From: Candidatus Bathyarchaeota archaeon
Lineage (GTDB): Archaea > Thermoproteota > CALKCG01 > B24 > DRYS01
DNA: 64,000 nt
Direction: 5' to 3'
NCBI GenBank assembly: GCA_018396535.1
Contig: JAGTQC010000004.1
Coordinates: forward strand, 96,569 to 160,568
Within the stretch, counting starts at the first letter, position 1, and each line of letters starts with the position of its first letter. Shown piece after piece: positions 26,442-29,147 of this stretch. Made by a program: the position numbers and the translations under genes. The notes under the pieces are model-generated. The model did no database searches, was not told the DNA's origin, and saw nothing but the letters and a program-made list of their open reading frames with translations.

Positions 26442-28669
26442 CTATTCTTTCACTATAAAATCTTCAGCCTTCGGAGGTTCTGGTGTTAGACCCTTCCTAG
26501 TTCTTATCTCTGTTACTATAGCCTTCTGCATAGATGCTGGTACCGGAGCCCATCTCGAGAAGCTTAGAGACCAGAATGCTTTACCACTAGTCGTAGACCT
26601 CATAACCTCAGCTAGATCGAATGTTTCTGCAGCAGGTATTTCGCCTATAATCCTAGCTAGATATGCATCCTGGGTTAGACTGACTACTTGTCCACGTTTA
26701 CCAGTTATTATCCTTATAACGTTACCAACCATATCTAGAGGTGTTTTAACCTCTATACGCATTATAGGCTCTAGTAGTGCCGGGTTTGCTGAAAGCATAG
26801 CAGCGTAGATAGCCTGCCTTACAGCTGGTATTATCTGTGCAGGTCCTCTATGTGCTGGATCCGAGTGTAATTCTGCATGGTTCAATATCACCTTTACACC
26901 TCTCACATACTCTCTACAGAGTGGGCCATCATCCATAGCTGATAGGAATCCAGATACTATATAGTCTATAGCTTCATTCAGGTACTGTACACCCTTCGTT
27001 CTATCGACTAGTATACATCCATGTTGATCTATAGCTAAGACATTTCTAGCATCTTCAGCACTCCACCCTGCATCCCTTAGGATCTTAGTCTTCATCCTCC
27101 TATCGAGTTCATCATGCAGCTCTCCACTCATAATCTTATCTATAACCTCTGGTTCAAGAGGCTCCGTACTTATGAAGACTCTATTATGCTTATTCGGTGA
27201 TTTACCCATGAACGGGCCTGCAGATCCTCTAATAGTCTCTCTGTAGATTATCGTAGGCTTAGACACTATTATTTCTATACCTGCCTTCTGTATGAGTGTT
27301 AACGCTATCTCTATATGGACCTGGCCTAAACCTGATATCAGGTATTCGCCGCTCTCTTGATCTATATGCGTTACAAGATTCGGATCCTCTATGGATAGCC
27401 TTCTAAGGATATCTACTAGCTTAGGTAGATCCCTACTATACTTTGGCTCTATAGCTACCGTTATCACAGGCTCCGTCACATATCTAACCATCTCGAATGG
27501 CACTACATCCTGTATACTCGATATAGTCTCACCAGCCCTAGCATCATCTAGACCTAGTAGTGCTGGTATATTGCCTGCAGATAGGCTTCCAACTATCTCC
27601 CTTCTAGGTCCCATGTATATGCATACCTGTTGTACGCGCCCCTTCCTCCTAGCTCCTACCAGGTATACTTCGCTCCCCTCGCTTATCGTTCCAGAAAATA
27701 GTCTACCAGTAGCTACTACACCTGCATGTGGATCTACAGTTATATTCGATATACACATAACGACTGGGCCATCATCATCGCATGAAAGCATAGCCTTACC
27801 TACAGGGCTATCTAGATCTCCCCTCCATATCTTAGGTATCCTTATCTTCTGTGCATCTATCGGGTTAGGTATATGCCTAATAACCATCTCCAGTATAGCT
27901 TCGTGTAGCGGTAGATCCCTAGCTAGCTCCTCACTCCTCCCCCTTCTATAAGCTTCCACTATATCCGAGAACTTAACCCCCTTCTTCATAGCTATATCTA
28001 ACGTTAACCCCCATCTATCTCTAGCAGAACCGAAGGCAACCTGGTTTAGAGCAGGATTAACCTTCCAGCTTGATCTAAATTCTGGCTCAGCGTATATCTC
28101 GATAAGATTATTGAAATCCTTTATTATATTCATCAGAGTTTCCTGGATAGCATTCGGTTCTAGCTTAAGCTCGTTTATCAATCTATCGATCTTATTTATG
28201 TAGAGTAGTGGTCTAACCCTCTCCTCGAGTGCTTGTCTAGTAACGGTTTCCGTCTGAGTCATAACACCTTCGACTGCATCTACGACTACTATAGCTCCAT
28301 CTATAGCTCTCAAGCTCCTCGTAACTTTACCTGTAAAGTCGATGTGTCCAGGTGTATCTATCAGGTTTATGATATATGGCTTACCTTCAAGCTCGTAGTA
28401 TAGGCTTATATTAGCTGCTTTAATCGTCATCTGCCTCTTCTGCTCCTCTTCCATATAGTCTAAAGCTAATGCTTTACCAGCTACGGTAGGCGATAGGAGT
28501 CCGGCTGCAGCAAGAAGGCTATCCGTCATCGTAGTTTTGCCATGATCGACGTGAGCTATTATACCTATATCTTCCGGGGGTGAAGAACCTCCTTTCACCC
28601 CTTTCGGATCTGACTCTTATCCTTAACTATACCTAATACCTCTGCTACACTCTTATACCTTCCGGGCAT
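26442..28669 (-). CDS. fusA: Translation elongation factor EF-2, two exons: complement(join(26442..28570,28603..28669)), 731 aa after splicing
   Basis: Exon 1 MPGRYKSVAEVLGIVKDKSQIR with GGAGGAG SD; spliced junction CGA AAT ATA gives RNIGIIAHVDHGKT; DTPGH, NKID and diphthamide loop HRGPAQ. Confidence 0.95.
28571..28602 (-). other. 32-nt bulge-helix-bulge (archaeal endonuclease-type) intron in the EF-2 mRNA
   Basis: UCCG-AA^A-GGGGUGAA-loop-UUCACCCC-CGGA-AG^A; 4-bp central helix, 3-nt bulges and 8-bp intron stem; canonical cuts restore the frame and the conserved motif. Confidence 0.9.
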
Positions 28670-28725
28670 ATTGAGTATCTCCTCCATTCATAGATTCTCT
28701 AAGCATTAGAGCATACTCATACTTC

Positions 28726-28739
28726 TATAAACATTTCTC
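28726..28739 (-). promoter_or_regulatory. BRE/TATA promoter of the EF-2 gene (divergent from pfdB)
   Basis: Minus strand GAGAAATGTTTATA upstream of the SD (28679..28685) and ATG 28669. Confidence 0.5.
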
Positions 28740-28753
28740 TGCAGTATTCAGCA

Positions 28754-28766
28754 GAAAAGTTATAAA
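28754..28766 (+). promoter_or_regulatory. BRE/TATA promoter of prefoldin beta
   Basis: GAAAAGTTATAAA about 30 nt before ATG with no SD (leaderless-like). Confidence 0.5.
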
Positions 28767-28793
28767 GGTTTCCCCGCCTCTGCTTTCATTGCT

Positions 28794-29147
28794 ATGAGTA
28801 GTGAGAAGATACCTCCAGCCGTACAGGAGCAGCTCGTAAGGGTTCAACAGCTTCAACAAACGTTTCAAGCTGTAGTTGCTCAGAAGCAGCAGCTGGAAGC
28901 TGAGCTTATAAGTATAGAGCAGGCTTTAGAGGAGTTGGAGAAGCTTCCAGATGATGCTACAGTGTATAAGGCTGTAGGACCTCTATTGATAAAGGTTAGT
29001 CGTAGCGCTATGGTAGCGGAGCTTAAGGAGAAGAAGGATCTACTAGATATGAGAATATCAGTTCTATCTAAGCAGGAGGAGAGGACTAGGGAGAAGCTTA
29101 TAGAAGCTCAACGTAAACTACAAGCGCAGATTCAAGGTTTAACATAG
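28794..29147 (+). CDS. pfdB: Prefoldin subunit beta
   Basis: IPPAVQEQL, coiled coil and VYKAVGPLLIK hairpin. Confidence 0.95.
   Translation: MSSEKIPPAVQEQLVRVQQLQQTFQAVVAQKQQLEAELISIEQALEELEKLPDDATVYKAVGPLLIKVSRSAMVAELKEKKDLLDMRISVLSKQEERTREKLIEAQRKLQAQIQGLT

Follow-up and report, generated by a model that had tools for sequence, protein, structure and literature searches.

The pre-mRNA of cbf5 in Crenarchaeota is reportedly interrupted by a bulge-helix-bulge (BHB) intron, a finding said to go back to Watanabe in 2002 and Yoshinari in 2006. This intron is found in Desulfurococcales and Sulfolobales, where its distribution is patchy and shows gains and losses (Yokobori 2009, PMC2738675), and a 2020 study gave cbf5 as the only case of a BHB intron in a coding sequence (PMC7714728). 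The same study described a BHB intron in the 5' untranslated region (UTR) of Haloferax volcanii HVO_1309, which was cleaved in vitro and whose expression fell on endA repression (PMC7714728). Among tRNAs, non-canonical introns with relaxed motifs of the HBh' or BHL kind are cut by tRNA-splicing endonucleases (EndA) of the (alpha-beta)2 or epsilon2 type (PMC5829648, PMC3488258, PMC4090602). Here we analyse a stretch of 64,000 nucleotides from an uncultured Candidatus Bathyarchaeota archaeon of hot-spring origin (contig JAGTQC010000004.1, positions 96,569 to 160,568; the window in what follows), in which the single gene for archaeal elongation factor 2 (aEF-2, or EF-2) holds a 32-nt insert at 28602-28571 on the minus strand. 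We read this insert, with a probability of roughly 90%, as an archaeal BHB intron of the relaxed HBh' form lying within the coding sequence. A working EF-2 could then very probably be made only from an mRNA that has been cut and rejoined.

The likeness to the cbf5 intron is that of a short BHB-type intron in a coding sequence, with a hetero-oligomeric EndA in the host and a conserved motif restored by its removal. The differences lie in the host gene, that of the translational GTPase aEF-2 (TIGR00490), which is interrupted 22 codons in and just before the P-loop, in the carriers, which are metagenome-assembled genomes (MAGs) labelled Bathyarchaeia or belonging to the Nitrososphaeria, and in an outer helix of one pair; further, cbf5 splicing was shown experimentally, whereas that of EF-2 is predicted from the sequence. 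The EF-2 intron would work like the cbf5 intron but is not part of the cbf5 intron family. With the non-canonical tRNA introns it shares the 4-bp helix, the 3-nt bulges, cuts placed after the second base of each bulge, a similar size range (26-37 nt in EF-2) and presumably the enzymes, but the EF-2 substrate would be an mRNA. As the exonic half of the helix between the bulges (helix H) is EF-2 coding sequence, the choice of synonymous codons is constrained to ATY for Ile, CGA for Arg and AAY for Asn. HVO_1309 resembles EF-2 in the predicted use of an mRNA as substrate of the splicing endonuclease, but its intron lies in an untranslated leader and interrupts no frame, and the H. volcanii EndA is of a different form. 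More distantly, the HAC1 and XBP1 mRNAs undergo unconventional cytoplasmic splicing by IRE1 and RtcB/Trl1 as a regulated stress response. These, too, combine a protein endonuclease, a small mRNA intron defined by stem-loops, an RtcB-type ligase (in metazoa) and a change of frame, but both the nuclease (IRE1) and the recognition motif differ.

The EF-2 frame of the window is read on the minus strand and falls into two parts. Exon 1 (28669 to 28603) consists of 22 codons, MPGRYKSVAEVLGIVKDKSQIR, and the first base (A) of an Asn codon; intron-less EF-2 proteins of 728-730 aa have N-termini (MPRYK/MPRFK...IRN) colinear with its peptide. Exon 2 (28570 to 26442) completes the Asn codon with two bases and runs on for 708 codons (IGIIAHVDHGKTT...FIVKE) to the stop. 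The 5' strand of helix H, UCCG (28608-28605), is exonic and straddles two codons, taking in positions 2 and 3 of the Ile codon and positions 1 and 2 of the Arg codon CGA, and it pairs with the intronic 3' strand CGGA (28576-28573). Bulge 1, AAA (28604-28602), contains the 5' splice site between 28603 and 28602, and bulge 2, AGA (28572-28570), the 3' splice site between 28571 and 28570. On the inside, GGGGUGAA (28601-28594) and UUCACCCC (28584-28577) form an 8-bp stem around the 9-nt loop AGGAGGUUC (28593-28585), and the intron carries an in-frame TGA at 28597-28595. The minimum free energy (MFE) fold of 28625-28555 is exactly this helix-bulge-helix, with -18.4 kcal/mol and z = -2.25 in comparison with dinucleotide shuffles. 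The insert thus has the two 3-nt bulges on opposite strands and the 4-bp helix between them that characterise a BHB motif, its inner helix h', closing the intron, is a Watson-Crick stem of 8 bp, and cuts after the second base of each bulge restore conserved EF-2 sequence. The region 28300-28900 gave no match to an Rfam family. A preliminary description of the locus, made from the sequence alone, had given the same anatomy and coordinates, which proved right to the base in both sequence and fold.

Removing 28602-28571 gives ..CAG ATC CGA A|AT ATA GGT.., which reads QIRNIG, the Asn codon being formed at the junction. The spliced frame of 731 aa (22 codons, the junction codon and 708 codons) restores ..QIR-N-IGIIAHVDHGKT.., and the frames together with the profile coverage bear out the earlier claim that a RNIGIIAHxDHGKT start and an EF-2 of this length are regained. 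Without splicing, the exon 1 frame reaches the intronic TGA after 24 codons, again as first read. Exon 2 reaches 878 bits against TIGR00490, the aEF-2 equivalog of NCBIfam (cut-off 738), and covers profile positions 22-720 of 720, so the 21 positions missing at its start are exactly those that exon 1 would supply; exon 1 alone, with 22 aa too short for profile matching, matches no NCBIfam profile. The full length (100%) of a 70-aa peptide spanning the junction can be aligned with intron-less EF-2 proteins of 728-730 aa, with an identity of up to 83%. The predicted joined-exon sequence is GATCCGAA|ATATAGGT, with NIGIIAHVDHGK as the predicted junction peptide and MPGRYK as the predicted N-terminus.

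The mechanism that we propose starts with the pre-mRNA, in which exonic UCCG would pair with intronic CGGA to give the 4-bp helix flanked by two 3-nt bulges, with the 8-bp hairpin on its inside. An EndA of the (alpha-beta)2 type would cut after the second base of each bulge and RtcB would join the exons, circularisation of the excised intron being probable. Joining would form the Asn codon AAT and yield the 731-aa EF-2 with a normal ..IRNIGIIAHVDHGKT.. start of the G domain, while unspliced mRNA would give only a peptide of 24 residues because translation stops at the intronic TGA. From these features we infer that the EF-2 pre-mRNA is cleaved and ligated in vivo.

The strongest support comes from a comparison of EF-2 5' regions, for which we used 40 related genomes together with 80 contigs from public data. 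Among these, 34 distinct sequences, from MAGs that are either labelled Bathyarchaeia or belong to the Nitrososphaeria, have 26-37 extra nucleotides inserted at one and the same codon. All 34 inserts have the 4-bp helix, two 3-nt bulges and an inner hairpin, the sequence of the hairpin being lineage-specific; bulge 1 is AAA in 32 of them and bulge 2 is ANA in 27. In a MAFFT alignment of the 34 sequences, helix H is paired in 98.5% of cells, and its pair 14-53, which is C-G in 19 sequences and U-A in 13, is never unpaired where both bases are present (two rows are gapped). Two-sided changes occur at seven of the eight pairs of the inner stem. The covariation score is 0.446 in comparison with 0.220 in column shuffles, none of 500 reaching the observed value, and it drops to 0.18 or less when the 3' partners are slid by 1-3 columns. 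RNAalifold independently arrives at the same H and stem with the 3-nt gap between them. Covariation extends to the one outer pair (A-U in 28, G-C in 4 and G-U in 1), in which position 1 of the Ile/Val codon meets the synonymous position 3 of the Asn codon; the next outer pair is unpaired in 22 of the 34 sequences. The intron in relatives and the compensatory stem changes that the preliminary description had pointed to as a check are therefore both seen, and its notion of a weak outer helix agrees with the one conserved pair across the 34 sequences.

The coding sequence around the insert shows a matching signal. The Arg codon is CGA in 31 of the 34 carriers in comparison with 6 of 70 intron-less genes, as expected if helix H constrains codon choice. 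In two Nitrososphaerales sequences Arg is encoded by AGG rather than CGA, and there the introns carry the matching CCUG and the splice site has slid by one base. Every one of the 34 inserts contains an in-frame stop, in 31 of them at the third codon after Arg.

The enzymes that such splicing would need are encoded in the genome. An EndA alpha-like open reading frame (ORF) of 187 aa on contig C2 (in the region of 6489) is closest to the alpha chain of Aeropyrum pernix (3P1Z_B), with E = 7e-48, and maps to the C-terminal catalytic repeat of the two-repeat enzymes; Tyr, His and Lys can be seen in the alignment, as can the KPRG loop. A beta-like ORF of 189 aa on contig C1 (in the region of 182466) corresponds instead to the structural repeat, the N-terminal one, and lacks a His in the equivalent position. 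With catalytic and structural paralogues both found, the hetero-oligomeric endonuclease foreseen in the preliminary description is upheld as a prediction, and its arrangement would be (alpha-beta)2. EndA of the (alpha-beta)2 and epsilon2 types cuts non-canonical motifs (PMC5829648), and a predicted (alpha-beta)2 enzyme that accepts relaxed motifs fits an intron with a one-pair outer helix. RtcB is present as one gene (596 bits).

Some observations weigh against the intron, and they fall into three kinds. The first concerns the motif itself. The outer exon-exon helix of the strict hBHBh' motif is reduced to one conserved pair, which makes the insert a relaxed HBh' form and not a strict motif. 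A loose version of the motif, with G-U pairs allowed and a 6-bp stem, is equally common in the shuffled and the real AT-rich genome; since it is so frequent by chance, the fold alone proves little and the weight rests on the exact placement and the comparative data. The second concerns the sampling, as the carriers are relatives and the sequence counts overstate the number of independent events, and the RNA data. One RNA run contains the gene (26% of words), but the matching contig ends at 28235, short of the junction, and three hot-spring metatranscriptomes have zero reads or joints over 28392-28590 and hence no coverage of the junction. The third is that the exon-2 frame of this window happens to be open across the insert, with a GTG at 28598.

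For the strict form of the motif, with Watson-Crick pairs only, a 4-bp H, a stem of at least 8 bp and a length of up to 40 nt, we found 12 instances in 2.83 million strand positions, where shuffles gave 1-5, a frequency of about 1e-6 per position. A-rich bulges together with merged long frames occur in only two of the 12, the inserts of EF-2 and of the S-adenosylmethionine (SAM) synthetase.

The open frame just mentioned leads to the alternative that survives best, although we give it only a slim chance: that there is no splicing and that EF-2 starts at GTG 28598 within the hairpin, beginning MKGGSSPPEDIGIIAH... and being 718 aa long, with the 24-codon ORF a leader or meaningless. The ORF listing does contain an open 718-aa frame from this GTG, gene callers would annotate the gene accordingly, and an N-terminally altered EF-2 is formally possible in this window; the protein would then have the N-terminal peptide ..GGSSPPEDIGIIAHVDHGK instead of NIGIIAHVDHGK. 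However, the GTG, which would give MKGGSSPPEDIG, is absent from both congeners, in 29 of the 34 carriers the exon-2 frame offers no ATG, GTG or TTG ahead of IGIIAH, and in many a stop 6-10 codons before that motif closes it. Two further points against an internal start are that the protein sequence of exon 1 is conserved and agrees with intron-less EF-2 at the N-terminus, and that exon 2 lacks exactly the first 21 positions of the aEF-2 profile. The GTG, moreover, sits within the 8-bp stem.

Recoding by the ribosome, either as a -1 frameshift at CGA AAG or as a hop of the kind known from phage T4 gene 60, appears less probable still. In this window no stop interrupts the -1 frame between the Arg codon and exon 2, and there is a stable hairpin downstream, but the lengths of the inserts, taken modulo 3, give all three remainders (11, 18 and 5 sequences), so that no single frameshift can serve all carriers, and many carriers have a stop inside the insert in the exon-2 frame. 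For a hop, no matched take-off and landing codons are found; landing on CGG at 28576-28574 would read AAG ATA TAG, and the conserved Asn codon, whose bases come partly from before and partly from after the insert, is beyond the reach of a hop. What is conserved is a 4-bp helix with two 3-nt bulges and not a slippery site. An assembly artefact or a decaying pseudogene has next to no likelihood: the genome is a 14-contig draft and was judged from contigs rather than raw DNA reads, but 34 distinct sequences, assembled independently and differing in their stems, share the codon at which the insert lies, and exon 2 is an intact 708-codon frame, above the profile cut-off, of a single-copy gene. Three of the findings named beforehand as able to undo the intron were not borne out: the insert occurs in 34 lineages assembled independently, a search of the 93%-complete genome (1.41 Mb, 14 contigs) found one EF-2 gene and no other fusA, and the GTG start that would yield MKGGSSPPEDIG is lacking even in the two congeners.

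Spliced EF-2 sequences were also sought among assembled data. A degenerate joined-exon pattern found 42 stretches in metagenome contigs, of which even the best has only 76% identity to a gene with the intron and many come from long contigs of genomic DNA; we rejected them as cDNA and consider them intron-less genes of other lineages. The 70-aa junction peptide had no match above 83% identity in a collection of 5.8 billion proteins, and this collection held no protein with a continuous N-terminus closer than 90% to an intron holder. Neither the metagenome contigs nor the protein collection contained an assembled spliced transcript from an intron-holding lineage. The 42 intron-less EF-2 genes on metagenome contigs (L121-L162) retain ATY-CGA-AAY at the intron site, where CGA is rare among genes that lack the intron (6 of 70), and this may be a mark of recent intron loss through spliced cDNA.

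The intron site is shared by many Bathyarchaeia-labelled lineages and by part of the Nitrososphaeria. In the organism's class, 13 of the 16 species genomes match a pattern of intron plus P-loop; for the remaining three, the EF-2 5' end either was not found or is cut off by the end of a contig. When 400 genomes sampled evenly across the phylum were searched, the pattern matched 18 and its reversed control none. A FastTree phylogeny of the first 400 EF-2 residues (103 rows) places all carriers within the portion that holds the Bathyarchaeia-labelled and Nitrososphaeria sequences, and well-supported branches force at least five changes of state. Judging from this tree, the EF-2 intron would be either old with repeated losses or the outcome of repeated gain at one site. 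One of the Nitrososphaeria carriers (G351, locus L117) has an essentially complete genome of 1.58 Mb in a single contig.

The same survey turned up other irregularities in EF-2 genes. In another family of the phylum (L019, G031:C3), a different BHB insert of 31 nt, read by eye, lies about 10 codons downstream at AH|VDHG, with H formed by GCCC/GGGU, bulges AUA/AAG and an 8-bp stem CCUAAGGA/UCCUUAGG; by its position it would mean that EF-2 has more than one intron site. A sequence labelled Bathyarchaeia (L067, CAZRDM010000020.1) has 499 codons open in frame upstream of IGIIAH, ending ..CISATGNFDVYDISVPMTHTF, and instead of the mini-intron it may have an intein or a frame fused on from upstream. 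At G029:C1:65208-66138 the EF-2 match is in two adjacent and overlapping pieces, query residues 1-104 and 97-300, which suggests another small insert or a frameshift, and genome G034 has two EF-2 matches on two contigs, possibly paralogues.

Similar introns in other genes of this lineage had been proposed in the preliminary description, and the proposal was borne out by a scan of this genome (G000) for A-N-A-bulged motifs that merge reading frames, which recovered inserts in four genes. In aIF5A (C7:48879-49306, plus strand; L163:79-506) a 35-nt insert, with H formed by CGGA/UCCG and bulges AAA/AAA, lies exactly at the codon of the hypusine Lys (..SKPG-K-HGSAKA..); exon 1 corresponds to positions 4-35 of the IF-5A profile, while the match of exon 2 is to the eIF-5a OB fold. 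The AmmeMemoRadiSam radical-SAM gene (C11:41218-42333, plus strand; L164:18-1133) has a 21-nt insert with H formed by CGAG/CUCG and bulges AAA/AUA, its exons corresponding to TIGR04337 positions 4-58 and 60-330. The profile coordinates of the two exons are contiguous in both of these genes. The cbf5 gene (C1:62638-63655, plus strand) has an insert of 34 nt, removal of which restores GHGGTL-D-PAVTG, and that of SAM synthetase (MAT; C8:171081-172366, minus strand) one of 35 nt with a 10-12-bp stem, restoring ER-K-GLGHPD. The filter for merged ORFs left many false positives in the genome-wide scan: a candidate at C10:77006 was rejected as it joins two unrelated genes, and the gene merger is ambiguous for those at C7:244937 and C7:160057. 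We also noted that an aIF5B-like match on contig C12 holds a TAA inside.

The surroundings of the EF-2 start were read from the sequence. The start codon ATG at 28669-28667 (minus strand) is preceded by a Shine-Dalgarno-like GGAGG at 28685-28681, 11 nt upstream, and by a TATA-box-like hexamer TTTATA at 28731-28726, 57-62 nt upstream. The GGAGG overlaps a second in-frame ATG at 28687 on the same strand, and a start there would add six residues. A divergent ORF of 117 aa (28794-29147, plus strand) adjoins the EF-2 promoter region and by eye resembles a coiled-coil, prefoldin beta-like protein. The congeners of this genome carry the NCBI labels Candidatus Bathyarchaeota or Bathyarchaeia and are of hot-spring origin.

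In the papers that we searched, BHB introns in coding sequences are limited to cbf5, to which the Haloferax 5'-UTR case can be added (PMC2738675, PMC7714728). A detailed study of archaeal EF-2 evolution makes no mention of an intron in EF-2 (PMC6143161), and we found no published EF-2 intron in the searched literature, which excludes most subscription journals and is not proof of absence. On the evidence of the sequences, EF-2 would be a new, and essential, host gene for a BHB intron.

The presence in two classes of an intron in the essential and highly expressed EF-2 gene, kept through compensatory changes, and of similar introns in other genes of this genome suggests that endonuclease-mediated mRNA splicing is regular in these lineages. 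Automatic annotation gives such EF-2 genes a wrong or truncated N-terminus, an error that is inherited by marker-gene sets and phylogenies based on EF-2. The site is also a natural experiment in which an RNA structure limits the use of synonymous codons, Arg being held to CGA and the first base of Ile/Val pairing with the third base of Asn, and the carrier with the single-contig 1.58-Mb genome may allow a test at the bench if the organism is in culture. More tentatively, and in our view rather doubtfully, the EF-2 intron could be one element of a lineage-wide layer of mRNA splicing that gates the translation apparatus. If this were true, the output of EF-2, aIF5A and cbf5 would depend on EndA/RtcB activity. 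That nearly all introns have an in-frame stop as their third codon, and that the site is so deeply conserved, would then be due to selection, either for this checkpoint or for the circular RNA that is excised, and not to a selfish insert being merely tolerated. One may speculate that, through EndA and RtcB, these archaea would couple their elongation capacity to the processing of tRNA and rRNA.

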